A DNA stretch of 64,000 nucleotides, from the NCBI GenBank assembly GCA_050729115.1, contig JBOHKK010000001.1, forward strand, positions 2,947-66,946. The letters run 5' to 3'. Each line of letters starts with the position of its first letter. The stretch's first letter is position 1. The stretch is from Geminicoccaceae bacterium (GTDB taxonomy: Bacteria; Pseudomonadota; Alphaproteobacteria; Geminicoccales; Geminicoccaceae). A model generated the notes under the pieces. The model did not search any database and had not been told where the DNA came from. It saw only the letters and a program-made list of their open reading frames with translations. Positions 3,096 through 44,741 of this stretch are shown one piece after another. A program made the translations under genes and the position numbers.

Positions 3096-3501
3096 TCCGG
3101 CATCCGAAGGAAATGGCGCGACGCGCAAGGGCTCGCAATCGACGCCGTGACAACGACTGCTCCCTGACCACACCTGCCAACGAGCGGGTCCGGAGATGGT
3201 TCCACGCGCCTTGCCGGTAAGTTGGCGACAGGCCTCGCGAGCCCAGATCCGCCGAACAGCGGCTTCAAGGCCACGGCCTCCCGCTCACCGAGGCACCTCC
3301 CTCGGGTCGGCCGAGCGGTAAGGGACGCGCCTGATGCCGGGACGGGTCGTGACCGGTAGGAGCCCGCTCCAGGGCAGCCCCCGGATCGCCCCACAGCCTC
3401 CGCTCCGGACGCGGTGCGCGTGCTGCGGCGAGGCGGCGTGGCGCCCTTGACAGCGGCGGCGGCGCTCGGGCATAATCGCGGCCCGACAGGGGAGGGGGAA
3501 C

Positions 3502-16409: not shown

Positions 16410-17765
16410 TCAGATCAGATAGCCGAGGTCCGAAGCGGCGGAGGGATACGCGCTGACGAGCTTTCTAAGATCGGTCGCGGTGAGGCCGGTGCGCATCGCG
16501 AGCCCGAAGAAGTTGATCAGCTCGCTCGCCTCGGGGCCCAACAGGTGCGCGCCGAGAATGCGCGCCGTGCCCTTCTCGAGCAGCACCTTGGCCGCGGCAT
16601 GGGTCTCGCCGACCCGCTCGACGCTGTACCAGTCGCTCATGTCGGTGGTTTTGACCTCGACGTCGAGCCCCTGCGCGCGCGCCTCGGCTTCGTCAAGGCC
16701 GACCCGGGTCAGCTCCGGGATGGTGAACACGGCGCTCGGCACGCCGGTGTAGTCGGGCGTCTCGGTGTTGCCCTCGAGGAGGTTCGTCGCGACCACCGCG
16801 CCCTCCAGGCTGGCGACCGGCGTCAGCGGCGCTCCGGCGGTGGCGGCGGCGTCGCCGGCCACGTAGACCCGCGGGTTGGAGACGCTCTGCAGGAACTGGT
16901 TGACCGCGACGCCCTTCTTTTCGGCGCAGACGTTGCCTCGCTCGAGGTCCAGGCGCTCGAGTGCCGGCGCACGGCCCGCTCCGTGCACGACCAAATCCGC
17001 TTCGAAGGTCTGGTTGCGACCGTCGATCTCGGCGGTCACGCCCAAGCCTGTGCTGGTGCGCTCGATCGCTTCGACCGCCGCCTTCGCCCGGAAGTCGACA
17101 CCGAGAGCGCGGGTGCGCTCCAGAAGCTTTACGACCAAGTCCGGATCGAACGCCTTCAGCGGCCGCTCGCCGCGATCGAGGACGACCACCTCGGCGTCCG
17201 CCCGGGCCGCGAGATGCGCGAACTCGAACGAGACATAGCCGCCGCCGATGAACAGCACGCGCTGCGGCAGCTCGTCGAGCTCGAGAAAACGATCGCTTGT
17301 CGTCACGTGCTCAGCACCCTGGATCGGCAACGGCACGGGCTCGGCACCGCTCGCGATGACCACATGGCGCGCCTGCAGACGCTCGCCGCCGACCTCCAGG
17401 GCGTCAGCCGCGACGAACCGCGCGGTGCCTCTGTGCGTGACGATGCCCTTATCGGCGAAGGCCTTCTCTTTGCTGGCCGGCACCGGATCGGTGAAGCTGC
17501 GCTTGAAGCGCATCAGGCTCGGCCAGTCGATACGGACGCCCGGGTCGGCGATGCCCTTGCCGTGCAGGAGCCGGGCCGCGTCCACGACCTCGGCGCCGCG
17601 CCGAAGCACCTTCTTGGGGTCGCATCCGCGCAGCTGGCACGTGCCGCCATACGGCAGCTCGTCGACGATCGCCACCGACCAGCCGGCCGCACGGCAGCGA
17701 TTGGCAACCGTGCTTGCGGCAGCGCCGGTGCCGACCACGACCAGGTCGAAGGTGTCATCCATCAC
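16410..17765 (-). CDS. class-I pyridine nucleotide-disulfide oxidoreductase (glutathione reductase / dihydrolipoyl dehydrogenase-like)
   Basis: FAD fingerprint DLVVVGTGAAAS, redox-active disulfide GGTCQLRGCDPKK, NAD(P) fingerprint FIGGGYVSFEF. There is no C-terminal CC tail, so it is not MerA. The GTG at 17765 is immediately followed by an ATG at 17762. Confidence 0.85.
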   Translation of the reverse strand: MMDDTFDLVVVGTGAAASTVANRCRAAGWSVAIVDELPYGGTCQLRGCDPKKVLRRGAEVVDAARLLHGKGIADPGVRIDWPSLMRFKRSFTDPVPASKEKAFADKGIVTHRGTARFVAADALEVGGERLQARHVVIASGAEPVPLPIQGAEHVTTSDRFLELDELPQRVLFIGGGYVSFEFAHLAARADAEVVVLDRGERPLKAFDPDLVVKLLERTRALGVDFRAKAAVEAIERTSTGLGVTAEIDGRNQTFEADLVVHGAGRAPALERLDLERGNVCAEKKGVAVNQFLQSVSNPRVYVAGDAAATAGAPLTPVASLEGAVVATNLLEGNTETPDYTGVPSAVFTIPELTRVGLDEAEARAQGLDVEVKTTDMSDWYSVERVGETHAAAKVLLEKGTARILGAHLLGPEASELINFFGLAMRTGLTATDLRKLVSAYPSAASDLGYLI

Positions 17766-17784
17766 GGTTTCCCAGAGAGTGTGG

Positions 17785-18309
17785 TCAGTAGACGAGGTAG
17801 TCGGCGTCGGCGGTCAGAACCTGCAGGAGAGCCTGCAGTTCCAGCGGCTCCAGGGCGTCGTCGATCCGCTGCGGATCGATCTGGTAGAGGAGCGCCATGG
17901 TCGTGTTGTAGTAGATCTCGGCGCCCTTCGCCTTGATGAAGTCGAGGTACGCGCCGTAATCGTGCGGCACCTCCTCAAGCGGCACGCCGAACTGCTCGGC
18001 GAGCGAGCGCCGCTCGCGCTCGGGGAGCGCGGCGCGGTCCATTGCGGTACTGTCGATGCCGAGCCAGCCCCGCCAGCCATACCCGCGGGCAACCGAGGTC
18101 ACGGCGCTGCCGTCGAACACGATGGTCACCGGCCTGCCCTCGGCGAGCGCCGCCCAAGCCACATTGGGCACCACGCAGATCTGTGCGTCGTCGACGCTGA
18201 GCGCGGTCTTGACGTGGAAGACGAGTGGCCGCTCTGCCGCGGCGACCATCGATGCCGCCGGCAGGAGGGCGAATAGAGTGAGCGCGAGTATGGTGTAGCG
18301 CGTGATCAT
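17785..18309 (-). CDS. exported hypothetical protein, possibly DsrE-like fold
   Basis: ATG at 18307..18309. Signal peptide MITRYTILALTLFALLPAASMVAAA. The segment HVKTALSVDDAQICVVPNVAWAAL..GRPVTIVFDGSAV is reminiscent of DsrE/DsrF-like proteins. This is a by-eye impression only. Confidence 0.55.
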   Translation of the reverse strand: MITRYTILALTLFALLPAASMVAAAERPLVFHVKTALSVDDAQICVVPNVAWAALAEGRPVTIVFDGSAVTSVARGYGWRGWLGIDSTAMDRAALPERERRSLAEQFGVPLEEVPHDYGAYLDFIKAKGAEIYYNTTMALLYQIDPQRIDDALEPLELQALLQVLTADADYLVY

Positions 18310-18563
18310 CGCGGTGATTCCAGCCGCTTCGGCTCGCGGTGGGCACGACCCTCCGCGAGCAAGCGCCCCTCCGTGCGCTTCGAGCTCCCGACGACCACCA
18401 CCACGATCAGCCCGATCAGCGCGGCGCCCAGCAGCCACCGGCCAGCACCATCCAGCAGCCAGACGCCGAGGCCGCCGAGCGCCCCTGTCGCAGCCAGCGT
18501 CAGCCCAACGCAGCAGGCCACCTTCGCCAGCAAGAGGACGAGAACCTTATCGCCGGTCGCCAT
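18306..18563 (-). CDS. hypothetical 2-TM membrane protein with intramembrane CC pair
   Basis: 85 aa. LLLAKVACCVGLTLAATG places a vicinal Cys pair in TM1, as in MerT/MerF-type Hg transporters. It lies immediately downstream of merA, and its stop overlaps the next gene by 4 nt. Confidence 0.55.
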   Translation of the reverse strand: MATGDKVLVLLLAKVACCVGLTLAATGALGGLGVWLLDGAGRWLLGAALIGLIVVVVVGSSKRTEGRLLAEGRAHREPKRLESPR

Positions 18564-18570
18564 CGCCTCA

Positions 18571-20216
<1,646 letters not shown>

Positions 20217-20220
<4 letters not shown>

Positions 20221-20942
20221 GAAGTCACCGCCAGGCCCGCGAGGCTCGGGGCGAAGATCGCGCGACCGGCCTGGAGTGCCTCATCGACCGACAGGCGAAA
20301 GCCCCGGGCCTCCGGATGGTGCTCCGCACGCCAGGCCTCCAGATGCGCGTCGTCGCAGAAGAAGGCGATGACGGTGCACATCGAGTTGGCTGCGCAGCCG
20401 TCCGTCCGGCGAATGCCCGACCAGACGACGGTCGAGCCTGGCCGGACGTCGGCCACCGCCCTGCTCCGATCGCTGGTCGCGATAGTGACCGGCGCGCCGC
20501 AGGAGCGGCAGCGCGACCGGATCTCGACGTCGCGTCCGTACATGTCGCCGGCGCCGAGAGCATCGATCGCGGATAAGGCATTCAGGGTTCGCTTCCCCAG
20601 GCTGACCCGATGCTCGGTGGCGCGATCCGTCCATGGATAGGCGCCGACGATGCGCTCGCCATCGGCATCGAGGACGACGAGGTCCCGTGCCTTGAGGCTC
20701 GCCAGGAGCGACCTGATCACGCTCTCGCGGACGCCGGCATGCCGTGCAAGGTCGGCGATCGCCGGCGCGCCGCCCTGCTCGGCGTAGAGGCGGAGAAGAG
20801 CGGTGCGCACGTCGTCCTCTGCGGGCGTGTAATCCCGCCACATACTCTCGATGCCGATCGCCTCGAGAATCGCGAGCAGGGCCTCGCGCGCCTGCGGTGA
20901 GGATACCGCCGCCCAGTCCGGGAACGTCACCCCAGGACGCAC
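20217..20942 (-). CDS. MerB-like (alkylmercury lyase family) protein, 5' end apparently severed by the IS
   Basis: The C-terminal half aligns by eye with MerB: LNALSAIDALG..RSRCRSCGAPVTIATS...SMCTVIAFFCDDAHLEAWRAEH versus MerB YAWCALDTL..SSHCAATGAPVSLTVS...FCCHVHFFAS. The GTG at 20940..20942 lies 6 nt from the IS end and has no RBS. Confidence 0.65.
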
Positions 20943-20948
20943 GTGATA

Positions 20949-22889
20949 GCTAGCCCGAAGTTACGTTGCGTAAAATGACATAGATCATTGATTCCAGGCA
21001 TGGATTTTGCCTAGCGGTGATTCTCGACTGGGAACGCGTCGATCAGGTCCTGGGCGCGGCGCTGGATCTCCGTGGGCGTGGTGATCTGGGTGAAGGTGGG
21101 GGCGTCGGGATCGGTCTTGAGGCGGCAGGTGTTGCGGCAGCGGGTGGCGAGCTCGGCGAGCAGGGTGTCGAAGCTGTGCAGCGGCAGGCCGTCCTCGGTG
21201 CGGCGGGTGGCCTTCTTGCGCTTGGCGTGCGGGGTAGGCGTCGCCGGGGCGACGGGGTCGCGGGTCTGGCGCTCCGGCTCCAGGGTGTCGTCGTCGAACA
21301 GCAGCGGCGCGAGAGCGCGGCGCAGGTGCCATTCGAGATAGGCGCTCAGGAGACAGAGGAAGACGTGGGCGCGGACCCGGCGCTCGTCGCGGTGGCGGAT
21401 CGGTCGGACCAGGATCTCGAGGCCCTTGAGGGTGCGAAACAGGCGCTCGACCTGGGCCAGGCCCTTGTAGGCGCGCACCGTGTCCGCGGCCGCGAGACGG
21501 GCCGCGGGCTCGCTGGTGCGGAGCACATAGATGCCGTCGAGGGCGGCCTCGGCGGCGATCGCCTGCTGGTCGCGGCGCCAGGCGAAGACGCCGTCGGCGA
21601 TGGCGAGCCGGAAGTGCTTGGCCACCTTGAAGCGGGCGATCACCCGGCCGACCATCTGGCCGATCGCGGCGGCCGAGAAGGGCGTCCTGGTCCGGCGTTG
21701 GACCTGGCGGGCGATCTTGGCCAGGTCCTTCTCGGTGGCGGCCAGGAGGGCCGCGCGCTTGCGCGCCCGCTCCTCGGCGAGCAGGGGATTGTAGCAGGCG
21801 ATCAGGCGCTCGCCCGGAAAGTCCGGTGCGGTGATCTCGGCCAGGTTCTGCTGGTCGAACAGCGAGAGCTGGAGGTGCTGGTGCGCGACCAGCTGGCGGA
21901 TGGCCGCTGACCTGAGGGCGGCGATCCAGCCGAGCTGGGGGTGTTCGCGCAGCCGCTCGATCTGGGTCTCGGTGCGCAGGCCGCGGTCGCCCACCAGGAC
22001 CACGCGCGCCAGCCCGAAGCGCTGCTTGAGCTTGTCCAGCTGGTCGGCGACGGTCGCCGGGTCGCCGGTGTTGCCCGGGGAGACCTCGACCGCCACCGGT
22101 CGGCCGCCGCGGCCGGTCAGCACGCCGTAGACCAGCTGGGTCTTGCCTTTCTTGCCGTCGCGGTTGTGACCGAAGCGCATGAGGGGACAACTCCGGCCCT
22201 CGTCGTAGCTGCTGGTCACGTCGTAAAAGACCGGCTGGCCGGCGCTCAGGTGCCGGCGGGCCAGGGCCTGCTCGATCCGCGCCTGGCGCGCGAGCAGCCA
22301 GTCCATGGCCCCATAGAGCTCGTCCACATCGGCCTCCTCGACGGCCAGTTCCTGCGCCAGGCTGGTGCTGTGCCAGAGCCGGGTGGTGGCGAGCTTGGAG
22401 GCGGGGTGGATCAGGCGCTCGAGGATCATCGCCAGGACCAGGTCGCGCTCGCGGCAGGGCTTGGCGGCGATCAGACGATCGAGGCCGAGGCGGCGCACCA
22501 TGGCCAGCAGCGCCGCGACATGGCCATGCGGCCACGAGCGTTCGATGGCAAAGGCGTCCTGGGCCGCGACCAGGCGCTCGCCCTTCAACAGGCGGCGCAG
22601 CGCCTGCACCTTGGCACCGGGCCAGTCGGTGAGATTGGCGAGGGTTCGCTTGCGGACCTTCTTGCCCTCGCGCCAGCCCTCGCGCAGCAGGATCGCGGGC
22701 CTCGATTTGCGGTTGGGGACGGTCTCGATGTACATGGGAACCATACTACCATAAACCTACCACCAATTCAATCCGAATAATCCCGTATACATGGGAACAT
22801 ACCGGTCGGCGCACAGGCCACCATCCGCTAGCAAATTCAACGCCATATGCGAACCTGACTCCTCAAGTTCAGGGCAACTTCGGGCTAGC
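20949..22889 (-). mobile_element. IS element (IS1634-like, IS4 superfamily), about 1.94 kb
   Basis: 14-bp perfect terminal inverted repeats: GCTAGCCCGAAGTT at 20949..20962 and AACTTCGGGCTAGC at 22876..22889. The sub-terminal regions are AT-richer and flank a single 577-aa transposase ORF. I could not identify a target-site duplication. Confidence 0.8.
21011..22744 (-). CDS. IS1634-family (IS4 superfamily) DDE transposase
   Basis: 577 aa. The N-terminus MYIETVPNRKSRPAILLREGWREGKKVRKRTLANLTDWP and the internal FYDVTSSY..., VLVGDRG and YKGLAQVERLFRTLK segments are typical of this transposase family. ATGs at 22744 and 22735. Confidence 0.85.
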   Translation of the reverse strand: MVPMYIETVPNRKSRPAILLREGWREGKKVRKRTLANLTDWPGAKVQALRRLLKGERLVAAQDAFAIERSWPHGHVAALLAMVRRLGLDRLIAAKPCRERDLVLAMILERLIHPASKLATTRLWHSTSLAQELAVEEADVDELYGAMDWLLARQARIEQALARRHLSAGQPVFYDVTSSYDEGRSCPLMRFGHNRDGKKGKTQLVYGVLTGRGGRPVAVEVSPGNTGDPATVADQLDKLKQRFGLARVVLVGDRGLRTETQIERLREHPQLGWIAALRSAAIRQLVAHQHLQLSLFDQQNLAEITAPDFPGERLIACYNPLLAEERARKRAALLAATEKDLAKIARQVQRRTRTPFSAAAIGQMVGRVIARFKVAKHFRLAIADGVFAWRRDQQAIAAEAALDGIYVLRTSEPAARLAAADTVRAYKGLAQVERLFRTLKGLEILVRPIRHRDERRVRAHVFLCLLSAYLEWHLRRALAPLLFDDDTLEPERQTRDPVAPATPTPHAKRKKATRRTEDGLPLHSFDTLLAELATRCRNTCRLKTDPDAPTFTQITTPTEIQRRAQDLIDAFPVENHR

Positions 22890-22909
22890 CGAGCGGCTGT
22901 CGTCGGCCA

Positions 22910-23203
22910 TCAGTCGCCTCCTTGTCCGATCACCCGTGAGGGAAAGCCGACGCCAGCGGTGGCCTCGGTTAGGGCTGCCACGGTCGTCCTGGCATCATCG
23001 AACGTCACCACTGCCATCTTTTCGGTGTAGGAGACCTCGGCGCGCGCAACTCCCGGCACCTCCTGCAGAACCGTCCGCACGATGTAGGGGCAGCTCGCAC
23101 AGGTCATGCGGTCGACGGCGAGCGTCACGGTGCGCTCGGCCGCGGTGGCGGCGAGGCTGGCGAGGAGGGTCGCGGACACTGCGGCGGCGAGGAGACGGGA
23201 CAT
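22910..23203 (-). CDS. merP: periplasmic mercury-binding protein MerP
   Basis: ATG at 23201..23203 with an AAGGAG RBS. Signal peptide, then VTLAVDRMTCASCPYIVRTVLQEVPGV (HMA fold with the MTCxxC motif). Confidence 0.9.
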   Translation of the reverse strand: MSRLLAAAVSATLLASLAATAAERTVTLAVDRMTCASCPYIVRTVLQEVPGVARAEVSYTEKMAVVTFDDARTTVAALTEATAGVGFPSRVIGQGGD

Positions 23204-23223
23204 TCGGTGGATCTCCTTCTCTT

Positions 23224-23625
23224 TCAGGTGCCGAGGAGCGCAGGCGCGACGTAGGGGAAGGCAAGCGCGGCGGCGACCAGTCCGGTCGCCAGCCACAAGC
23301 TGGTCTTGACGATGCGGTCCGACAGCGGCCGCGCGCAGGCTGCGCCGTCAGTGCAGGCAGGCTTTGGCCGCAGGTAGACGAGCCAGAAACCAGCCCCGAG
23401 GAAGGCGAGCGTGATCGCAACGAAGATCGGCTGGTATGGTGAAAGCGCCGTCAGGGTGCCGATCCAGGCGCCGCCGAGCCCGAGGCTGAACAGCACGAGC
23501 GGCAGGATGCAGCAGGACATCGACGCGAACGCGCCCAGCATACCGCCGGCCGCGAGCCATGCCCGCCGCTTCTCCGTCCGCACCGTCCGACCGTGCGGCG
23601 GCTGCTTCAGCTGAATCGCCTGCAT
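23224..23625 (-). CDS. merT: mercury transporter MerT
   Basis: 133 aa. TM1 reads SMSCCILPLVLFSLGLGGAW (CC pair). A second Cys pair lies in the cytoplasmic loop (KPACTDGAACA). This is MerT architecture. Confidence 0.88.
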   Translation of the reverse strand: MQAIQLKQPPHGRTVRTEKRRAWLAAGGMLGAFASMSCCILPLVLFSLGLGGAWIGTLTALSPYQPIFVAITLAFLGAGFWLVYLRPKPACTDGAACARPLSDRIVKTSLWLATGLVAAALAFPYVAPALLGT

Positions 23626-23655
23626 CGCCCTTGACCTTTTCTTTGCGACACCAGG

Positions 23656-23686
23656 AACCTAGGTCCTGTAGCGGGTACAGGTTCAA
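23656..23686 (-). promoter_or_regulatory. MerR-type mer promoter/operator (19-bp spacer with dyad)
   Basis: Minus strand: TTGAAC - ctgtacccgctacaggacc (19 nt) - TAGGTT. The spacer contains the inverted repeat CCTGTA-N5-TACAGG. It lies between divergent merR and merT. Confidence 0.7.
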
Positions 23687-23728
23687 GGGGCTTTGTGGGA
23701 TCCGAGTTCACGGATACGGGAGCGGGCG

Positions 23729-24124
23729 ATGCGGCGTGGTGAGCTGGCGGAGCGGAGCGGCTGCAACATCGAGACGGTCAGGTTCTACGAGAAGCAGGGG
23801 CTGCTGCCGGCTCCGCCGCGCACGGCCGGCGGTCACCGCGACTATGCTTTCGAGCACCTGAAGCGGCTCACCTTCATCCGTCGCTCGCGTGAGCTCGGCT
23901 TCACGCTTGGAGAAGTGCGCAGTCTGCTCGGGCTGGTCGATGGCGGTGACTGGACTTGCGCTGAGGTCAGGGCGATGACCCTGGAACACCTCGCGGACGT
24001 CCGGCGCAAGATCGCCGACCTCGAGCGGCTCGCTCGAATCCTCGAAGAGATGGCGGCGCGGTGCGAGGGCGGCGCCGTACCCGAGTGCCCGATCGTCGAC
24101 GCCCTCTTACAGGATCCTCTCTAA
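23729..24124 (+). CDS. merR: Hg(II)-responsive transcriptional regulator MerR
   Basis: ATG at 23729 with a GGGAG RBS. HTH is ELAERSGCNIETVRFYEKQGLL. Three Cys are spaced C-35-C-8-C (TCAEV...ARCEGGAVPEC). Divergent from merTP. Confidence 0.85.
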   Translation: MRRGELAERSGCNIETVRFYEKQGLLPAPPRTAGGHRDYAFEHLKRLTFIRRSRELGFTLGEVRSLLGLVDGGDWTCAEVRAMTLEHLADVRRKIADLERLARILEEMAARCEGGAVPECPIVDALLQDPL

Positions 24125-32110: not shown

Positions 32111-34645
32111 TCAGACCACGTAGCGATCCCAACCACCGTAATGTTCGGAGCTCCGCTTGCCGCGCGGCAGACTGAGAGCGATCAGCGCCGCCCCGGCGAG
32201 CACACCGGCCCAGGCGCCGAGCAGGGTGGCGCCCGGCAGCAGCCAAGGCGCGGCGATCAGCCAGAGGCCGAACAGGACATTGATGAAGCGCAAGGGCCGC
32301 GCGACCTCGGCCATGGCGCTCACCGCCACGGTGATGGCGAGCGCGCCGATCAAGTGGTCACTGTCCGCCAGCGGCGGTTCGGTGCCGAAGATCAGGCGGC
32401 TGAACATGAGCCAGACGCCCAAGGCGGCGCTCGCAACCAGCGTCCAAGGCACGGTCACCCCCCAGGCCATCGCTGCCCCCATCGTCCGCAGATCCGCCCC
32501 GAAGCCTGGTCGCTCACTCTCCGTGGCGCCCGGCATGGCGCCGCCCTGGAAGAAGGTACGCCAGAAGGGCTTGCCTGCCCGGTGGCTGTGCAGGAGGAAC
32601 TGCCCCATCGCCACGAGCTCGTCGAGCGCGAAGGGGATCATGATCAGCATAGCGAGCGCTGCGAGCAAACAGAGCGTGCAATAGGTACCGATGACGATTG
32701 GCTGGATGATGATGAAATAGATGCTGACGACGCCGAGCGGCACCACGACGATACCGAACAGGACCACCATCCAGGGCATAGTGCGCCAGCGGCGGCGGTC
32801 GCCCATGACGCCCATCAGCACCTCGAACATGTAGCTCACCGCACCGAGGCCGGCGTCGGCGATCGGCCAGGCCTTCGAAACGTCCGAGGTGATGATGACC
32901 TCGGTGCCGTTCAGGCCGCCTCCACCGGAGAAGAACGGTTCCCAAACCCCGTCGACGTGCCCGAGCTGGTAGGCGGCGAGGGAGCGGGCGATGACGAAGC
33001 CGACAAAGCCAAGCGCGATGATGGGCAGGCGCTGCAGGTAGGTCGATGGGGAGTAGGTCCAGCCGGGCGGGGTATCTGAGCTGTCCATCATCCCTTCGCG
33101 GCTCATGCCCGGCATCATCGGCACCAGGATGGCGAAGGCGATGACCAGCGCGCCGATGAAGGTGTCGTTGGCGTAGACCGCAGCGCTCGGCGACCAGAAG
33201 ACGAGCGGCGCGAACAGGAGCCAGATCCCCACTGCGGTATTCGCCCATTGCGCCCACGCGAAGCGCTGAGAGAGAGACAACGCACCGAATGCCATGATCA
33301 GCAGGCCGCTGGTCAGGTCGCTCCAGGCGGTGAGTGCGCTGCGCAACCCGGGCTCCCACAACCCGCGCTCCTCGGTCACGCGTAGCACGCCTTCGCCGAA
33401 GGCCGCATGGTCGAACGTGCCGAAGACGAACGGACTGGCCGCCAGCCAGGCGCCGAGCATGATGTTGAGAAAGTGCACCCAGAGCATGCCGAGGTGCATC
33501 CGCCGCATCCCCTCCATGTGCTCGCGCACCATCTCCTGATGCTCGAGCGGATCGGCGGTGGGCTGCTCCTGCTGATCCTGCTCGACCCGCTTCGCCGCCA
33601 CCCTGGCGGCGTTCAGCTTGTTCGCCCGATACCAGCCGACCGGATCGGCGTCGAGCGCTGCGACGATTTTCGGCAGCGTCCGCCGCAGGGAATGCTTCGG
33701 CTCCCAGCCGAGGACGCTCCGGGCACGAGAGAGGTCGAGCTCGTAGTGGTCGTCGGCGATCTCGACCATCCACGGCTTGATGAACGGATCCTCCTCCAGA
33801 ATCTCGTCCTGGACCCACGCGCCGGTCCTGGCTAAGGCTTTCGGGACTTGGCGTGTCTCCCACTCCTCATCGTGGATGAGCCAGCCGAGCTCGCGCTGAA
33901 TCTCGCCGAAGCTCATCGTCTCCGGCTCGCCGAGGAGGAGCGGAAGCTCGGGCGGCAGCTCCTTGCGGCGCTCGACGATCCGCAGCAAAGCGTCCGTAAG
34001 GTCGTCGAGATGCAAGAAGGGCTGTCCGGTCCGGAGGTCGCCCGGATAGGAATGACTGATGAGCTTGCGCTCATAGATCCGAGAAATCTGTCGAGCGAGG
34101 AAGGCTGAACGGCAGAGATCGTCGTAGACCCCGGCAGGACGCACCAGAACGGCCGGGATGGAACCGCGCTGCTCTTGGATCAGCCGCTCCGTTCGGATCT
34201 TGGATTCCCGGTACGGGAGCTTTGGGTCGATTGGCCAGTCCTCGTCGATCGGTTGCGCACGTTTGCCGGGCGCATGGACCAACATGGTGCTGGCGAAGAC
34301 AAACTGCTCGACCTCGAAGGATTGCAGGCCGCGCAACAGCCGTTCGGTGCCACGAACGGTGACTTGTTCGTATTTCGGATTTGGCTCACCAGTAAGGTCG
34401 AAATAGGCGGCGAGGTGGATTACCGAAGCAATGCGCTCGCCATAGGCCGTTCGCACCCGCCGAAGCGCGGCCTCGACACTCTCTTCGGAAGTCAGATCGA
34501 TGCAGATGCATTCGGCGGCCGGTGGTGGATGAGGCGGCGTCGCACGGTCCAGGCCGACCAGGGCGAAATGGTTGCCCAGCTTTTCGATCAGCGCCGCGCC
34601 GATGAAACCGCTGCTGCCGGTGACGACTACCGTGTCCTTTTCCAT
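32111..34645 (-). CDS. fusion protein: NAD-dependent epimerase/dehydratase (SDR) domain plus polytopic membrane region with SPW-repeat-like and VKOR-like (CxxC) segments
   Basis: 844 aa. N-terminal VVVTGSSGFIGAALIEKL...YRESK (extended SDR). After about residue 385 there are at least 10 hydrophobic helices. Several carry the W-L-x-x-(S/A)-P-(W/F) pattern seen in the SPW protein at 37239..37670. One segment, ...TEVIITSDVSKAWPIADAGLGAVSYMF...IGTYCTLCLLAALAML, resembles the VKOR loop plus the CxxC helix. Confidence 0.7.
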   Translation of the reverse strand: MEKDTVVVTGSSGFIGAALIEKLGNHFALVGLDRATPPHPPPAAECICIDLTSEESVEAALRRVRTAYGERIASVIHLAAYFDLTGEPNPKYEQVTVRGTERLLRGLQSFEVEQFVFASTMLVHAPGKRAQPIDEDWPIDPKLPYRESKIRTERLIQEQRGSIPAVLVRPAGVYDDLCRSAFLARQISRIYERKLISHSYPGDLRTGQPFLHLDDLTDALLRIVERRKELPPELPLLLGEPETMSFGEIQRELGWLIHDEEWETRQVPKALARTGAWVQDEILEEDPFIKPWMVEIADDHYELDLSRARSVLGWEPKHSLRRTLPKIVAALDADPVGWYRANKLNAARVAAKRVEQDQQEQPTADPLEHQEMVREHMEGMRRMHLGMLWVHFLNIMLGAWLAASPFVFGTFDHAAFGEGVLRVTEERGLWEPGLRSALTAWSDLTSGLLIMAFGALSLSQRFAWAQWANTAVGIWLLFAPLVFWSPSAAVYANDTFIGALVIAFAILVPMMPGMSREGMMDSSDTPPGWTYSPSTYLQRLPIIALGFVGFVIARSLAAYQLGHVDGVWEPFFSGGGGLNGTEVIITSDVSKAWPIADAGLGAVSYMFEVLMGVMGDRRRWRTMPWMVVLFGIVVVPLGVVSIYFIIIQPIVIGTYCTLCLLAALAMLIMIPFALDELVAMGQFLLHSHRAGKPFWRTFFQGGAMPGATESERPGFGADLRTMGAAMAWGVTVPWTLVASAALGVWLMFSRLIFGTEPPLADSDHLIGALAITVAVSAMAEVARPLRFINVLFGLWLIAAPWLLPGATLLGAWAGVLAGAALIALSLPRGKRSSEHYGGWDRYVV

Positions 34646-34690: not shown

Positions 34691-34807
34691 TTAACGGCTG
34701 GACATCAGATATTTGACCAGCGCCGCAGCAGCGAGGATCAGCACGATGAGCACGACAAGGCCGATCGGGCCCATGCCGCCCATCATCCAGCCCATGCCGT
34801 CCATCAT
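34691..34807 (-). CDS. Met-rich single-TM micro-protein (38 aa), paralog of 43244..43369
   Basis: My own translation: MMDGMGWMMGGMGPIGLVVLIVLILAAAALVKYLMSSR*. GGGAGGG RBS 7 nt upstream. It lies between cueR and the 844-aa fusion gene. A second copy with the same architecture sits in the dsbA-ccmG cluster. Confidence 0.6.
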   Translation of the reverse strand: MMDGMGWMMGGMGPIGLVVLIVLILAAAALVKYLMSSR

Positions 34808-34966
34808 GGCGCGCCCTCCCGCGTGATCCGCATCTACGTGACATACGCTTTGACAACGGCGCAGGCGGCGTAATGTTTCCGGTCGCCGTGCAAGGGGGCG
34901 CGTGCATACGCCGACCAGCACTGCGCTTGGCGCTTTCGCGGGACGCGTGATGCTGGATGGCGCGGC

Positions 34967-35446
34967 TCAATCCCATTCCATGCCCGCTTCGCCGACCTCG
35001 GCTCGTCCGCGTCGGGCACCGTTCGCTCGACCGGCTCCGTTCGCCCAGCCACTCTCCTCGGGATCGGCAAGATCCCTCAGGATCGGGCAGTCGGGTCGGT
35101 CGTCACCGTCGCAGTGGTCCGCCAGATGCTTCACCGTATCCCGCAGTGCCTCGAGCTCTGCGATCTTTGCCTGGAGCTCGGCCACGTGGTCGAGGGCGAC
35201 GCGCTTCACCTCGGCGCTGGACCGGTCGCGGTCGCGCCACAATCCCAAAAGCTGCTCGACGCGCTCCACCGAGAACCCAAGACTTCGCGCCCGTTTGATG
35301 AAGGGCAGCGTATGGACGTCCGAGGTGGTGTAGGCGCGATAGTTGCCGGTGGTCCGCCTGGCCTCGGAAATCAGCCCGATGTCCTCGTAGTAGCGGATGG
35401 TCTTCGCCGGAAGGCCAGACGTCCTTGCGGCTTCTCCAATATTCAT
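34967..35446 (-). CDS. cueR: Cu(I)-responsive MerR-family regulator CueR/HmrR
   Basis: MNIGEAARTSGLPAKTIRYYEDIGLI HTH. C-terminal metal loop CDGDDRPDC (C-8-C, as in CueR). GGAAGGAGG RBS. Confidence 0.88.
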   Translation of the reverse strand: MNIGEAARTSGLPAKTIRYYEDIGLISEARRTTGNYRAYTTSDVHTLPFIKRARSLGFSVERVEQLLGLWRDRDRSSAEVKRVALDHVAELQAKIAELEALRDTVKHLADHCDGDDRPDCPILRDLADPEESGWANGAGRANGARRGRAEVGEAGMEWD

Positions 35447-40097: not shown

Positions 40098-40221
40098 CGC
40101 CTGACCGTCTGCTCCCGCAGACGACGGCGTCGAGGCCTCCGCGCACCTCAGACGCACGGAGGTGACTTGGCTCTGCCACGCGCGCCAAAGCTGGCCGTAT
40201 CCAAGGGTGAGTTTCCTCGAG

Positions 40222-41685
40222 ATGAAGTCTGCCAGATTCGGACATCTCTCGCGCCGGTCCTTGCTGGCTGCGAGCGGCGCAGCTGCTCTCGCGGCGGTGG
40301 TACGGCCTTGGCCGCTCCGGGCCGGCTCGCCCATCGAGTATCGCCTTGTTGCAAGTCCGGGACGCGCGCATCTGGTCGGCGCGCCATATCCAGAGACCGC
40401 GGTCTGGTCGTACAACGGGACGGTGCCAGGCCCGGAGATCCGGGTGCGCCAGGGCGAACGGCTGCGCGTCGTCGTCGAAAACCGGCTCGGCGAGGAGACG
40501 ACGGTGCACTGGCACGGCCTCCGCGTGCCGAATCCGATGGACGGCGTGCCCGACCTCACCCAGCCGCCGATCGCGCCGGGCGATGAGTTCATCTACGAGT
40601 TCGATGCGCCGGACGCCGGAACCTACTGGTACCACCCGCACCAACGGAGCTTCGAGCAGGTCGGACGCGGGCTTTACGGGCCGCTGATCGTCGAGGAGCG
40701 GCAGCCGATCAAGGTCGACCGCGAGATCACCTGGGTGCTGGACGACTGGCGCCTTGAGCGTGATGCGCAGATCAGCGGCGGCTTCGGCAACTTCATGGAC
40801 GTCAGCCACGGCGGCCGGCTGGGTAACACGGTCACTGTCAACGGCCGCATTCTCGATAGCTTCGCGGTGCGCGCCGGCGAGCGTCTGCGGCTGCGGCTCA
40901 TCAATGCCGCGAACGCGCGCATCTTCGGGTTGGCGTTCCAGGACCACCGACCAACGGTCATCGCGCTCGACGGCCAACCGGTAGAGCCGCATGAGCCGGC
41001 GGAGGGCCGCGTCGTCCTCGGCCCCGCGATGCGGGCCGATCTCGTGGTCGACATGAGCGGCAGGCCGGATAAGCGGTTTACCGTGGCTGACACGTTCTAC
41101 CGCGACCGCGAGTACCGCCTGCTCGATCTCGTTTATGGCAAGGAGCCGCCGCTCCGTGAGCACCCGCTCGATGCGCCGGTGCACCTTGCCGCCAACACCA
41201 TGCCCGAGCCGGATCTAGCAACAGCCGAGCGGCACCAGGTGACCTTCGGCGGCGGCATGATGGGCATGATGATGGCTGGTGGAATGATGGGTGGCGGGAT
41301 GATGGGCGACATGATGAGGGGCACGATGAGGGGCACGACAGGCATGATGACGGGCCGCGGCGTCTGGACCGTCAACGGCGTGTCGGCGACCGGACACACC
41401 CCCAAGCCTTTCCTGACCCTGCGGCGGAACGACTCGTACGTCCTCGCCATGCACAACAACACGTTCTTCCATCATGGGATTCATCTGCACGGACACTCGT
41501 TCCGTGTGATCGCGCGGGACGGCGGACCGACGCGCTATCGCGAGTGGCAGGACACCGTGCTCATGGCGGCGGATGAGCGCGTCGAGATCGCTTTCGTGGC
41601 CGACAATCCCGGCGACTGGATGATCCACTGTCACATGTTGGAGCACCAGGCGGGCGGGATGATGGGCGTGATCCGGGTGGTCTGA
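40222..41685 (+). CDS. multicopper oxidase (CopA/PcoA/CueO-like) with Met-rich insert, Tat signal
   Basis: MKSARFGHLSRRSLLAASGAAALA is a twin-Arg signal. Copper ligands are HWHG, WYHPH and HCHMLEHQAGGMM. The Met-rich insert is GGGMMGMMMAGGMMGGGMMGDMMRGTMRGTTGMMTG (about 41248..41358). Confidence 0.9.
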   Translation: MKSARFGHLSRRSLLAASGAAALAAVVRPWPLRAGSPIEYRLVASPGRAHLVGAPYPETAVWSYNGTVPGPEIRVRQGERLRVVVENRLGEETTVHWHGLRVPNPMDGVPDLTQPPIAPGDEFIYEFDAPDAGTYWYHPHQRSFEQVGRGLYGPLIVEERQPIKVDREITWVLDDWRLERDAQISGGFGNFMDVSHGGRLGNTVTVNGRILDSFAVRAGERLRLRLINAANARIFGLAFQDHRPTVIALDGQPVEPHEPAEGRVVLGPAMRADLVVDMSGRPDKRFTVADTFYRDREYRLLDLVYGKEPPLREHPLDAPVHLAANTMPEPDLATAERHQVTFGGGMMGMMMAGGMMGGGMMGDMMRGTMRGTTGMMTGRGVWTVNGVSATGHTPKPFLTLRRNDSYVLAMHNNTFFHHGIHLHGHSFRVIARDGGPTRYREWQDTVLMAADERVEIAFVADNPGDWMIHCHMLEHQAGGMMGVIRVV

Positions 41686-41699
41686 GGGAAGACGGCGAG

Positions 41700-42428
41700 A
41701 TGCTTGCCAGAGCCTCAATGATCGGGGCCATCGCGGCCGGCGTAATGGTGATCATTGGCGGCGCATCCGCGGCGCAGGGCGATCCCGAACAGGGCGAGCA
41801 GGTCTTTCGCGCCTGTATCGCCTGTCATTCGCTAGAGCCGGGCAAGCATCGCACCGGGCCGAGCTTGGCCGGCATCTGGGGCGAGAACGCTGGGACGGTC
41901 GAGGGCTTCTCCCGATATTCGCCGGCGCTCAAATCGACGGACGTGACGTGGACCGCAGAGACGCTCGACGCCTGGCTCGCTGATCCTCGGGCGTCCATTC
42001 CGGGGAACCGGATGATCTTCCCGGGTCTCAAGGATTCACAGGCGCGGGCGGACCTGATTGCATACCTGAAAGTCGCTGCGGCCGGAGGCGACGGTCCGCC
42101 GGACACCGCGGGCCAAGACGGGATGATGGGCGGCGGCATGGCAAGATCCGACATGCCGGACCTAAAGGCCATCGGTCCGGACCAGCAGGTGACGGCCATC
42201 CGCTATTGCGGCGACACCTATCACGTCACGACCGCTGCGGGTGAGACGCTTGCGGGTGAGACGCTCGCTTTTTGGGAGTTCAATCTCCGCTTCAAGACCG
42301 ACTCGAGCGAGAAGGGACCCAGTGAGCGTCGCCCGGCGCTGTTGCCGGCCAGCTCCATGGGCGACCGGGCGTTCGTCATCTTTGCCCATCCTTCGGAAAT
42401 CAGCTCCTTCATCGAGAAGCGCTGCTGA
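41700..42428 (+). CDS. class-I c-type cytochrome with C-terminal extension of unknown function
   Basis: Signal/anchor, then the haem site CIACH and a distal Met region (GNRMIFPGL) like cytochrome c2. This is followed by about 110 extra residues. The gene contains a 2 x 15-bp tandem duplication. Confidence 0.8.
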   Translation: MLARASMIGAIAAGVMVIIGGASAAQGDPEQGEQVFRACIACHSLEPGKHRTGPSLAGIWGENAGTVEGFSRYSPALKSTDVTWTAETLDAWLADPRASIPGNRMIFPGLKDSQARADLIAYLKVAAAGGDGPPDTAGQDGMMGGGMARSDMPDLKAIGPDQQVTAIRYCGDTYHVTTAAGETLAGETLAFWEFNLRFKTDSSEKGPSERRPALLPASSMGDRAFVIFAHPSEISSFIEKRC

Positions 42429-42461
42429 AAGGGGCCAACGAGCCAAGGACTGGTGGATACG

Positions 42462-43244
42462 ATGCGACGACTTCCAGTGATCTTTGTAGCGGCTCTGCTT
42501 TGCATGGCTGCGGGCGCCACCTGGTTTGCGGTCGATGCGGCTGCGCAGCAAAGGGCACCCGTTTCGGGCACCTCCGAAAGGCCTGTGGAACTCGATGAAT
42601 TCGAGCAGCGTGTGCGCGACTTCCTGCTCGAGCATCCGCAAGTGATCATGGACGCCTTACAGGTGCTGCAGGAGCGACAGCGCGCGGCCGAGGCCGACGA
42701 TATTAAGCGCACCATCGCGGCGCGGCGAGACGAGATCTTCAATGATCCGAACGCTCCGGTAGGTGGCCATCCCGCCGGCGACGCCACCGTCGTCGAGTTC
42801 TTCGACTACAACTGCCCCTACTGCCGCAGGGTGGCGCCCACTCTGACCGAGGTCGAAGAGGCCGATGCCAATCTGCGCGTCCTGTACAAGGAGTTCCCGA
42901 TCCTTGGGGCCGGTTCTCGATTCGCCGCCCGGGCGGCGCTCGCGGCGCACAAACAGGGGAAATACCTCCCCTTCCATACCGCCCTGATGCAGGCGCAAGA
43001 GCAGCTTGACGAGCTCAACGTCATGAAAATCGCGCAGGCGGTCGGGCTGGACGCCGAACGCCTGCGGCAGGACATGCAGGATGCCGCGATCGGGGAAGCG
43101 ATCGCGCGCAACCTCCAGCTCGCCGAAGCGCTCGGGATCACCGGGACTCCGAGCTTCGTGATCGGCGACCAGATCGTCCCTGGCGCGGTCGGTCGCAGCA
43201 GGCTGGAGCGGCTGATCGCCGAGGCGCGGGACCGGGGAACCTGA
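42462..43244 (+). CDS. DsbA-family thiol:disulfide oxidoreductase
   Basis: Signal peptide MRRLPVIFVAALLCMAAGA. Thioredoxin motif FFDYNCPYCRR. GTPSFVIG near the C-terminus. Confidence 0.85.
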   Translation: MRRLPVIFVAALLCMAAGATWFAVDAAAQQRAPVSGTSERPVELDEFEQRVRDFLLEHPQVIMDALQVLQERQRAAEADDIKRTIAARRDEIFNDPNAPVGGHPAGDATVVEFFDYNCPYCRRVAPTLTEVEEADANLRVLYKEFPILGAGSRFAARAALAAHKQGKYLPFHTALMQAQEQLDELNVMKIAQAVGLDAERLRQDMQDAAIGEAIARNLQLAEALGITGTPSFVIGDQIVPGAVGRSRLERLIAEARDRGT

Positions 43245-43369
43245 TGATGGACTGCATGATGATGATGGGCGGATGGCCGGGCATGCTGGCGGGCGGCCTC
43301 GTAGTTCTGCTGCTCGTTGTGCTGCTGGTTCTGAGTGCCGCCGCCCTGGTCAAGTACCTCCGGAGTTGA
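43244..43369 (+). CDS. Met-rich single-TM micro-protein (41 aa), paralog of 34691..34807
   Basis: My own translation: MMDCMMMMGGWPGMLAGGLVVLLLVVLLVLSAAALVKYLRS*. The ATG overlaps the dsbA stop (TGATG). The ORF ends 11 nt before ccmG. It shares the Met-rich head, one TM and the AAALVKYL tail with the other copy. Confidence 0.6.
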   Translation: MMDCMMMMGGWPGMLAGGLVVLLLVVLLVLSAAALVKYLRS

Positions 43370-43380
43370 GGGTGGAGCTC

Positions 43381-43998
43381 ATGCAATCGCGGCAGGAATC
43401 GGCACAGGCGCTGGCCAACACAGACGGAGTCCTTGCTCCTGCCTTGGGGGCGACAGCTCGCCATCAGCGGATACGAGGGATTTTCCTGCTGCCGCTGCTG
43501 GTGTTTGCCGGGCTTGCCGTAGCCCTCGGCTGGGGGTTGACGCGTAGCCCCGAGGTGCTCCCTTCCCCGCTGATCGGCAAGCCGGTGCCCGAGTTCAGCC
43601 TGCCCCCGGTGAAAGGCCGAACGCTCGGTCTCTCGAGCGCCGACCTCAAGGGCGAAGTCTCGCTCGTCAACGTCTTCGCCTCCTGGTGCACCGCCTGCCG
43701 CTATGAGCATCCGGTGTTCATGCGGATCAAGGAGGAAGGCGTCGTGCCGATCCACGGCATCAACTACAAGGACCGCCCCGACGACGCTGCCAACTGGCTG
43801 GACGATCTAGGCGATCCTTACACCCGCACGGGCGCCGATCGCGACGGCCGCGTCTCGATCGAATGGGGCGTGTACGGCGTGCCGGAGACCTTCGTGATCG
43901 ATCGCGAGGGGCGGATCGTCTTCAAGCAGGTGGGGCCGGTCCTGCCCGAGATCTGGCGGGACAAGATCGCACCACTGATCGAGGAGCTGCGCCGGTGA
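43381..43998 (+). CDS. ccmG: periplasmic thiol:disulfide oxidoreductase DsbE/CcmG family
   Basis: ATG at 43381 with GAGGGTGGAG upstream. Membrane anchor, then VNVFASWCTACRYEHP and GVYGVPETFVID motifs. Confidence 0.8.
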   Translation: MQSRQESAQALANTDGVLAPALGATARHQRIRGIFLLPLLVFAGLAVALGWGLTRSPEVLPSPLIGKPVPEFSLPPVKGRTLGLSSADLKGEVSLVNVFASWCTACRYEHPVFMRIKEEGVVPIHGINYKDRPDDAANWLDDLGDPYTRTGADRDGRVSIEWGVYGVPETFVIDREGRIVFKQVGPVLPEIWRDKIAPLIEELRR

Positions 43999-44741
43999 GC
44001 GCCGTGGAGACTGCCATGCGGTTGAAGCCCATCATCGGGGCGGCCGCTGCACTGGTTGTGACCGCGCTGATCGCGGGCGGGGCGTACTTGGCCACGAACA
44101 CCGCGCAGGAAGCGCGAGCGCCTGAGCCCACATCGCCGGCCACGGCGGCATCGACCAAGAAGGGCTTCGCCTTCAGCGCGCTCGAGACGCCGCGGGAACT
44201 GCCCGAGCTGCGCTTCGTGGACGGCGATGGCCGCGAGATGACCCTGGAGGCGTTCGAGGGCAGGACGATCCTGCTCAACATCTGGGCCACATGGTGCGTC
44301 CCGTGCCGGGAGGAGATGCCGGCGCTCGATCGCCTGCAGGCAAAGCTCGGCGGCCCCGACTTCGTCGTCGTGCCGCTGTCGATCGACCGCGAAGGTCTGC
44401 CGGCGGTCAAGGCGTTCTACGAGGAGCTCGGCCTCGAGGCGCTCGGCATCTACGTCGATCAGTCCGGCAAGGCGAGCCGGCAGTTGGGGGCCGTGGGCAT
44501 CCCGACGACGCTGCTGGTCGATAGCGAGGGGCGCGAGGTCGGGCGCACTCTCGGGCCGGCGGAGTGGGATAGCGACGAGATCGTGGAATTCCTGCGCGGC
44601 TTCATCGCGGAGCGACCCGCCGCCGCTTCTCAGCCCGAAATCCCGGGAGAGACGCAGTTTGCCCTGCGTCCGGAGAAGCGCGGCGCCGAGTCGCAGCGCC
44701 ACGTCCCCCTTGCCTTCCAGCCACTGGAAGGAACTATCTGA
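43995..44741 (+). CDS. TlpA-family thioredoxin-like protein (membrane-anchored)
   Basis: The GTG at 43995 overlaps the ccmG stop (GTGA). An alternative ATG is at 44016. Contains LLNIWATWCVPCREEMP and GIPTTLLVD. Confidence 0.8.
   Translation: MSAVETAMRLKPIIGAAAALVVTALIAGGAYLATNTAQEARAPEPTSPATAASTKKGFAFSALETPRELPELRFVDGDGREMTLEAFEGRTILLNIWATWCVPCREEMPALDRLQAKLGGPDFVVVPLSIDREGLPAVKAFYEELGLEALGIYVDQSGKASRQLGAVGIPTTLLVDSEGREVGRTLGPAEWDSDEIVEFLRGFIAERPAAASQPEIPGETQFALRPEKRGAESQRHVPLAFQPLEGTI
44710..44740 (+). promoter_or_regulatory. CueR-type box CCTTCC-N7-GGAAGG embedded in the 3' end of the tlpA-like gene
   Basis: Read directly: cTTGCCTTCCagccactGGAAGGaacTATCTG. It has the same half-sites and N7 spacing as the boxes at 35715 and 35757. 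The -35-like TTGCCT and -10-like TATCTG are separated by 19 nt. Confidence 0.55.

Follow-up and report, generated by a model that had tools for sequence, protein, structure and literature searches.

Met-rich Micro-proteins of Alphaproteobacterial Copper Loci: Two Members From a Geminicoccaceae Genome and Their Possible Role in Cu(I) Handling

Introduction

A stretch of 64,000 nucleotides from a Geminicoccaceae bacterium (contig JBOHKK010000001.1, positions 2,947 to 66,946; hereafter the window) carries, inside a copper/metal homeostasis gene cluster, two very short open reading frames (ORFs). Micro-ORF 1 and micro-ORF 2 raise the question of whether such small frames are genes at all and, if so, what their products do among copper genes. 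An initial annotation of this DNA described them as two related peptides with a Met-rich N-terminus and a single hydrophobic helix, took their conservation at two loci as a sign of translation, and proposed that they serve a periplasmic disulfide system as a copper-linked accessory subunit. Translation of the window confirmed the position, strand, and length of both frames (38 and 41 amino acids; Table 1), and the common architecture was borne out in both peptides, which are paralogs of one family. A six-frame motif scan of the window yielded these two copies and no third.

Both ORFs are very probably real coding genes linked to copper, and they are best explained as members of a widespread family of bitopic inner-membrane micro-proteins of about 40 residues. 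As for their role, the reading favored here, with a probability of roughly 50%, is that the Met-rich tail constitutes a membrane-tethered, periplasmic buffer or relay for Cu(I).

Family Size and Evidence for Coding Function

Likeness between the two peptides is a poor starting point by itself. Composition-matched simulated windows of 67% GC contained 8–20 shared 8-mers each by chance, and a shared 8-mer alone is therefore weak evidence. Thus, the argument of the initial annotation from two-locus conservation to real translation holds in part: the frames do look like translated genes, as judged from the family and from codon bias, but their resemblance within the window would not have been decisive. 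The likeness exceeds chance because of evidence from outside the window, namely the match of ORF1 to the family profile (E = 6.9e-17), the number of related protein clusters, and a codon-position bias in the same frame.

Peptide-level homologs are plentiful. A profile made from the two peptides retrieved 338 proteins of 36–71 aa, nearly all of them 36–52 aa long. When a profile of 31 members was searched against 1.84 billion cluster representatives (50% identity), 1,687 clusters were matched at E ≤ 1e-3 and 179 at E ≤ 1e-10, almost all of 35–60 aa. Longer ‘fusion’ matches of 70–150 aa were rejected after inspection as read-through, frameshift, or mis-started calls. Members were defined as proteins of 35–50 aa with a tail of about 8–14 residues containing at least four Met and a stop codon no more than about 10 residues past K-Y-[LV]. 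Both window peptides align to the family, fall within its length range, and follow its pattern of an N-terminal tail with at least four Met, one hydrophobic helix, and then [AG]xAL[VI]KY[LV], the form of the motif seen among members from the unbiased search. ORF1 is a divergent member that lacks two consensus interfacial Trp residues and ends in KYLMSSR in place of KYLRS, while ORF2 and its close relatives (P0002–P0007) carry a Cys in the tail. At the DNA level, a back-translated pattern in which L[ASG]AAALVKYL was fixed detected at least 120 metagenome contigs, about 95 of which hold a complete member with a Met-rich start.

The substitutions among members are unlike those of non-coding DNA. 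When the last 24 codons were compared among nine distinct loci, codon positions 1:2:3 accounted for 256:78:520 differences, and the proportion of synonymous differences (pS) is near saturation at 0.4–0.9, against a proportion of nonsynonymous differences (pN) of 0.06–0.3. Even AAALVKYL is spelled with different codons at different loci. This third-position bias, together with high pS and low pN, demonstrates that the peptide frame is under purifying selection. Signals for translation are also enriched. Shine-Dalgarno-like motifs precede 63 of 97 members (65%) versus 16.5% of control ATGs, and ATGA or TGATG overlaps join members to neighboring genes.

These data bear directly on whether the ORFs encode a functional protein at all, or instead represent chance frames, leader peptides or attenuators, type I toxins, or fragments of larger genes. 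The frames are indeed short, chance ORFs abound in a genome of 67% GC, and shared 8-mers are expected in such sequence. Against a non-functional origin stand the strong third-position bias with saturated pS and low pN, as well as the recurrence of the same length and architecture in the 1,687 clusters. A leader peptide would be expected at the 5′ end of operons, yet members often follow cusA or occupy an internal or final position in an operon, and conservation spans the whole transmembrane (TM) helix and the tail rather than a few regulatory codons. The co-directional, translationally coupled operon arrangement argues against a type I toxin, which would be expected as a stand-alone gene with an overlapping antisense RNA. 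Taken together, it is very improbable that the ORFs lack a functional product.

Distribution and Annotation Status

Named carriers include Bradyrhizobium sp. I1.14.4, Bradyrhizobium betae, Methylorubrum extorquens AM1 (p2META1; WP_012753476.1), Sulfitobacter and Roseovarius plasmids, and metagenome-assembled genomes of Stellaceae. In Sphingopyxis alaskensis RB2256 the gene is Sala_2554 (WP_011542825.1), called at 67 aa. A plasmid of Jiella pelagia (NZ_CP114030; locus L147, ~3495–3611) encodes an unannotated ORF1-type member, MMMMDGMGWMMGGMALVWILVLIVLVLAIIALVKYLKT. One carrier, Polaromonas, is betaproteobacterial; the other named carriers are Alphaproteobacteria. Candidate matches by blastn fall on plasmids of Rhodopseudomonas, Nitrobacter, Agrobacterium, Phyllobacterium, and Rhizobium.

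Peptides of this size are difficult queries. A tblastn search of plasmids with a 44-aa member returned no match, probably because the query is short and of low complexity; a distant blastn search with member DNA recovered annotated copies. Likewise, a scan of genome contigs confirmed only 1 of 134 pattern matches, which was attributed to the same property of the query, and its outcome was used solely for a Bradyrhizobium locus (L005).

Public annotation of the family is inconsistent. The public protein collection contains the exact ORF1 peptide but not that of ORF2. In RefSeq, the members that have been called are labeled “hypothetical protein” and others were missed. Pfam and NCBIfam gave nothing significant for ORF1, ORF2 (E ≤ 0.01 for these two peptides), or the 31 members, for which there were only sub-threshold, TM-driven matches (CcmH, TraL, and others) scoring at most about half of the cut-off. 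There was also no Pfam match to periplasmic copper-binding families of the CusF/CopC/PcoE type, CusF_Ec included. Literature searches on the motif, on Sala_2554, on VKOR, SPW, and copper, and on small-protein and copper themes found no description of the family. It thus belongs to no described family, although the kinds of protein that it resembles, small bitopic accessory proteins and Met-rich Cu(I) motifs, are well known.

Architecture and Predicted Topology

The family consensus can be written MMDGMGGMMWGMG-LLWLLLVIVLVLAAAALV-KYLRS(DRSK). Its pre-helix tail has a median of 11 residues, 6 of them Met, with a composition of 51% Met, 21% Gly, and 8% Asp and a net charge of −0.9, whereas the post-helix end carries a net charge of +2.5. 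The tail motif MMWGMG is conserved at positions outside the fixed search pattern. Members have a single hydrophobic TM helix; Kyte-Doolittle 19-mer averages are 2.9–3.2. AlphaFold2, run on the family alignment, likewise returned a single helix of residues 11–40, in which the core (residues 21–40) reaches a pLDDT of 96–98; the tail is modeled with low confidence (pLDDT of 59). Under the positive-inside rule, the acidic Met tail and the basic KYLRS end predict an N-out, C-in orientation, with a periplasmic N-terminus and a cytoplasmic C-terminus.

Genomic Context and Candidate Partners

Context was surveyed in 102 non-redundant loci by clustering all neighboring ORFs without prior labels. Nine cluster representatives were then labeled through Pfam and the other clusters through annotated genes of the window and of loci L001–L018. 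Immediate neighbors could be scored upstream, on the same strand, in 74 loci and downstream in 75. A CusA-type RND pump, 8–17 nt away, is the upstream gene in 16 of the 74, followed by DUF411/CopG (9), an unknown protein of about 90 aa with a Cys-rich TM segment (8), and ScsC/DsbA (6). Downstream, a cytochrome c-like protein of about 240 aa with an MGGMMGGM linker is found in 17 of 75 loci, a small mono-heme cytochrome c, often with a 4-nt overlap, in 7, a TlpA-like redoxin in 6, COX2 in 3, and an SDR-VKOR-SPW fusion and a methyltransferase in 2 each. Of the 55 loci that span 3 kb or more, 42 carry at least one recognized copper gene. Members occur almost exclusively within copper (metal) homeostasis loci, where their partners, SCO1 among them, are interchangeable, and the family behaves as a portable module of periplasmic copper-handling loci. 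Periplasmic copper handling is the common denominator of the neighbors.

Two neighbor clusters, c7 and c16, were recognized as shadow ORFs; c7 lies on the strand opposite to the micro-ORF and was counted with c1. The latter, the cytochrome c-like protein of about 240 aa (L005, 6077–6793), is the most frequent neighbor of the micro-ORF (24 of 102 loci). Its representatives have a CxxCH heme motif, a Met/Gly-rich linker MGGMMGGMGGMM (MGGMMGG), and a weak Pfam Cytochrom_C score, and the linker reads as PPIIPP shadow ORFs on the opposite strand. The protein with the Cys-rich TM segment APCLIMCAFGLCMMG spans about 90–130 aa (L002, 6551–6928; L138, 521–958) and has no Pfam match. It occurs in 13 loci, where it often immediately precedes the micro-ORF or is flanked by CcdA/DsbD_TM and SCO1.

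Tight adjacency of this kind could reflect a dedicated small subunit or modulator of one membrane machine, either the CusA RND pump or a membrane-docked c-type cytochrome, with the Met tail contributing to the partner's periplasmic Cu(I) entry site. AcrZ with AcrB and KdpF with KdpABC are the models for such a role. In agreement with it, cusA is the commonest upstream gene (instances include L005 and B. betae), about 24 of 75 loci have a c-type cytochrome gene immediately downstream, which in some overlaps by 4 nt, and the invariant interfacial K-Y pair, like the Ala patch, suggests that helices make a specific contact. Nonetheless, the window encodes two micro-ORF copies and no cusA was found in it, the neighbors can be exchanged for one another (CopG, ScsC, TlpA, COX2, the VKOR fusion, methyltransferases), and the Pfam models of AcrZ, KdpF, FixS/CcoS, and CydX have no significant match to the family. 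A dedicated subunit is accordingly regarded as unlikely.

The disulfide proposal of the initial annotation finds its best case in the two subtypes present here. Micro-ORF 2-type members always lie between ScsC and TlpA genes (in the window, L013, and L014) and have a conserved tail Cys, and near-identical ORF1-type members lie directly upstream of the fusion gene, at a distance of 26–45 nt, in the window, S. alaskensis, and J. pelagia. In a further locus (L071) the fusion is less than 1 kb from the micro-ORF. The embedding in copper/thiol-redox operons that was originally described for the window is sound, and its synteny recurs elsewhere (L013, L014, S. alaskensis, and Jiella). As a general function, an accessory subunit of a VKOR-like oxidase and DsbA/ScsC is not supported: most immediate neighbors are unrelated to disulfide chemistry, with ScsC upstream in 6/74 loci, TlpA downstream in 6/75, and the fusion in just 3 of the 102, and most members lack Cys. 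An obligate co-occurrence with VKOR or DsbA genes is not seen across the 102 loci or on plasmids that carry the fusion, and the pairing of VKOR with DsbA, invoked in the initial annotation, is not needed to explain the data. A disulfide-system subunit appears rather improbable, and would perhaps hold for these two subtypes only.

The plasmids in question illustrate how loose the association is. Homologs of the fusion were detected by tblastn in 138 plasmid records, 73 of them from Sinorhizobium, and range over Alpha-, Beta-, and Gammaproteobacteria and even Natrinema. Inspection of four fusion-bearing plasmids, from Aquibium, Rhodanobacter, Paraburkholderia, and Sphingobium, revealed no recognizable family member beside the gene. 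On a fifth, from Pelagibacterium nitratireducens (NZ_CP146276; L148, ~1870–1953), a 27-aa ORF, MIGGMTLIVGLALIVLVIGVPIKHRRG, ends 35 nt before the fusion; Met-poor and with IKH replacing VKY, it resembles a family member that has decayed or diverged strongly. The link between micro-ORF and fusion gene is consequently facultative. The fusion itself is widespread on metal-resistance plasmids, where it adjoins cusCBAF, copCD, mer genes, or Cu-ATPases, and a literature search found no paper combining VKOR, SPW, and copper. In the J. pelagia plasmid the fusion gene downstream of the member is split into two coding sequences.

Some neighbors suggest regulation instead. A small membrane protein might report periplasmic copper to a membrane sensor, such as an NrsF/DUF1109 anti-sigma factor or a histidine kinase, in the manner of MgrB acting on PhoQ. 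Pairs of ECF sigma factor and NrsF adjoin the micro-ORF in 6–7 loci, and an HWE histidine kinase and cueR stand beside ORF1. However, most loci have no such sensor nearby, and a sigma/anti-sigma pair is more simply viewed as controlling the whole operon, which leaves a regulatory role distinctly improbable. Two such pairs are found in L010 (434–739, 892–2144), where a member flanked by two methyltransferase genes lies in a conjugative-element context (TrbI, VirB8) beside DoxX and BufA1, of the bufferin precursor family.

A Putative Met-Tail Buffer or Relay for Cu(I)

The favored reading is the Cu(I) buffer or relay named at the outset. The acidic Gly/Met-rich tail would face the periplasm and the basic KYLRS(DRSK) end the cytoplasm. 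Through its Met thioethers, the tail would most probably bind Cu(I) in the way of the Met motifs of CusF, CusB, CusA, CopC, and Ctr1 and the Met-rich segment of CueO, which would make the peptide a membrane-tethered buffer or hand-off point on the outer face of the inner membrane. It could serve any periplasmic copper machinery encoded beside it, as opposed to being a dedicated subunit of one complex. Self-association into a homo-oligomer is conceivable, with packing through the G-x-G and AAAA small-residue patches. Precedents for the separate steps exist in other proteins: Met-rich segments of multicopper oxidases bind extra copper, and CopA passes Cu(I) directly to periplasmic CusF (PMC8456105).

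Several points weigh against this explanation. The putative Cu(I) role is read from composition and genomic association only. The set of potential ligands is not uniform, since Cys is present in the tail of 9 of 96 members and His in 21 of 96, and the TM helix lacks polar or Met ligands. Close linkage to cusA and to genes of c-type cytochromes could reflect specific protein partners instead of an autonomous role, and among the 55 loci spanning 3 kb or more, 13 (L018, for instance) lack a recognized copper gene. With regard to conservation, the invariance of the L[ASG]AAALVKYL columns among metagenome members is a by-construction result of the search pattern, and the closest pair, window ORF2 and its L013 counterpart, has a pN of 0.10 that exceeds its pS of 0.04; the pair has six differences, mostly non-synonymous and conservative.

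A bolder version of the same idea can be considered a long shot. Here, the peptides would assemble into a homo-oligomeric ring whose periplasmic mouth presents 15–30 Met thioethers, a minimal Ctr1-like Cu(I) collar on the inner membrane acting as a universal adaptor. Such a collar would capture Cu(I) as it leaves CopA-type ATPases or arrives from the periplasm, and would pass it to the client encoded alongside, be it CusCBA, the multicopper oxidase, CopG, the SDR-VKOR-SPW protein, or the cuproenzyme assembly line of ScsC/TlpA-SCO1. Should this prove true, copper trafficking in bacteria would gain a new and portable component.

To our knowledge, maps of copper homeostasis in Alphaproteobacteria, which comprise Cu-ATPases, Cus, multicopper oxidase/CopG, and Scs/TlpA/SCO1, include no small membrane component. 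Nevertheless, this gene of about 40 codons is among the most recurrent modules of alphaproteobacterial mobile copper islands while being inconsistently annotated. Should the micro-protein bind Cu(I) on the periplasmic side of the inner membrane, it would account for a poorly understood stage of copper transfer, from cytoplasmic export to the periplasmic acceptors. The few bacterial micro-proteins whose function is understood would then include one that handles metal. A hidden Markov model of the family would let annotation pipelines call these genes and prevent over-extension of their neighbors, as with the TlpA-like ORF that runs from position 43273 of the window.

Comparison With Known Systems

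Met-rich binders of Cu(I)/Ag(I), such as CusF, the N-terminus of CusB, CopC/PcoC, PcoE/SilE, the CueO segment, and the ‘Mets’ motifs of Ctr1, resemble the family in their Met clusters. They share with it the MxM, MxxM, or MM spacing, exposure to the periplasm or the outside (predicted for the micro-proteins), and location in copper-resistance loci. In contrast to these binders, which take the form of a folded soluble domain or a multi-pass transporter, the micro-protein consists of an 11-residue tail on a single TM anchor, and Pfam gave no match that would indicate sequence homology. The Trp after a Met pair in the family's MMW motif recalls the Met2-His-Trp site of CusF and is a lead only.

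A second set of analogs are small bitopic proteins of 30–50 aa with one TM helix, including AcrZ (with AcrB), KdpF (with KdpABC), CcoS/FixS (with cbb3 and CcoI), CydX, MgtS, and MntS. Like these, the micro-proteins are encoded beside or coupled to membrane machinery, in this case after cusA, before COX2, or by Cu-ATPase islands. Unlike them, the family has no single conserved partner gene and bears a tail that resembles a metal ligand. Small bitopic membrane proteins are routinely missed by annotation (PMC12648545).

A further parallel is CutF of Rhodobacter capsulatus. This small product of the cutFOG operon, an operon of multicopper oxidase and CopG (DUF411), has been proposed as a Cu(I) carrier from CopA to a periplasmic client (PMC8456105). 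Both proteins are small and hard to detect, lie in alphaproteobacterial copper operons, and have a proposed part in Cu(I) hand-off. Their sequences and architectures are unrelated, however, CutF being a soluble periplasmic protein of 118 aa that has a cleavable Sec signal peptide, ends in a Pro-rich stretch, and contains a CXXXC motif.

Micro-ORF 2 also lies in a cluster of the ScsC-TlpA(ScsD-like)-CcdA type, which is reminiscent of the Scs system (ScsABCD) that ties thiol-redox chemistry to copper tolerance. The micro-protein is none of the four described components, and most members are found outside Scs-like clusters. ScsA is a larger CXXC membrane protein, and it is by this description only that it is set apart from the micro-protein.

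The Window and Its Neighboring Genes

The settings originally described for the two ORFs proved accurate (Table 1). ORF1, with its GGGAGGG ribosome-binding site, lies 159 nt downstream of cueR and 45 nt upstream of the Epimerase-VKOR-SPW fusion gene; both cueR and an HWE histidine kinase gene adjoin it. A promoter scan of the region between cueR and ORF1 gave no sigma-70-like site and no obvious MerR-type dyad. A megablast search of plasmids with the ORF1 neighborhood matched short cueR stretches only (51–91 nt).

ORF2 is translationally coupled to the ScsC gene via TGATG (43242–43246), in which its ATG and the upstream TGA have the A in common. The distance from its stop codon to the ATG at 43381 of the TlpA/DsbE-like redoxin gene, which the initial annotation had named ccmG, is 11 nt. 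The longest ORF of this redoxin starts at 43273 and overlaps ORF2 in another frame (43273–43380). The later start is favored because the homologous call in L013 is 205 aa long and because of the GGGTGGAG Shine-Dalgarno sequence; in L013 that call begins 12 nt past the micro-ORF. Calls that over-extend the redoxin gene may account for the missing ORF2 peptide in the protein collection. The GTG start of the second redoxin overlaps the preceding stop codon (GTGA).

Table 1. Features of the window discussed in the text (positions are those of the 64,000-nucleotide stretch)
Feature	Coordinates	Strand	Product or evidence	Remarks
Micro-ORF 1	34691..34807	-	38 aa, MMDGMGWMMGGMGPIGLVVLIVLILAAAALVKYLMSSR	‘MMDGMGWMMGGM’ subtype of the Met-rich micro-protein family
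Micro-ORF 2	43244..43369	+	41 aa, MMDCMMMMGGWPGMLAGGLVVLLLVVLLVLSAAALVKYLRS	Cys-containing ‘MMDCMMMMGGWPGM’ subtype of the same family
Shine-Dalgarno-like GGGAGGG	34814..34820	-	Read from sequence	6 nt before the ORF1 ATG
Purine-rich GGGGAA	43234..43239	+		4 nt before the ORF2 ATG; weak Shine-Dalgarno within the end of the ScsC gene
cueR, Cu(I)-responsive MerR-type regulator	34967..35446	-	TIGR02044, E = 2.3e-50, above curated cut-off	Upstream of ORF1, same strand
Epimerase/SDR-VKOR-SPW fusion	32111..34645	-	844 aa; Pfam Epimerase, VKOR, SPW	
Multicopper oxidase	40162..41685	+	Pfam Cu-oxidase, Cu-oxidase_2, Cu-oxidase_3	First gene of the ORF2 operon
Cytochrome c-like protein	41700..42428	+	Pfam Cytochrom_C, E = 1.4e-6	Cluster c1
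ScsC-type DsbA	42453..43244	+	Pfam ScsC_N and DSBA	Stop overlaps the ORF2 start
TlpA/DsbE-like redoxin	43381..43998	+	Pfam Redoxin, AhpC-TSA	205 aa if the start is at 43381 (inferred)
Second TlpA-like redoxin	43995..44741	+	Pfam Redoxin, Thioredoxin_8	Start inferred; L013 homolog 248 aa
Mercury-resistance block	16410..24124			Adjoins the copper island
DDE transposase	21011..22744			Within the mercury-resistance block

More broadly, the window is a copper/mercury island. It contains two Cu-ATPases, four regulators of the MerR family, one of which scores as CueR, the multicopper oxidase, ScsC, the two TlpA-like redoxins, a rhodanese, DUF411, SCO1, Cox11, and CcdA, along with the mercury genes MerT, MerB, and MerA-like. 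The region looks like an integrated island, given that the window opens with chromosomal-looking nuoCD/nuoA genes. The mercury-resistance block next to the copper genes comprises two MerA-like pyridine-nucleotide disulfide oxidoreductases, MerB, MerT, and MerR, and has a DDE transposase within it.

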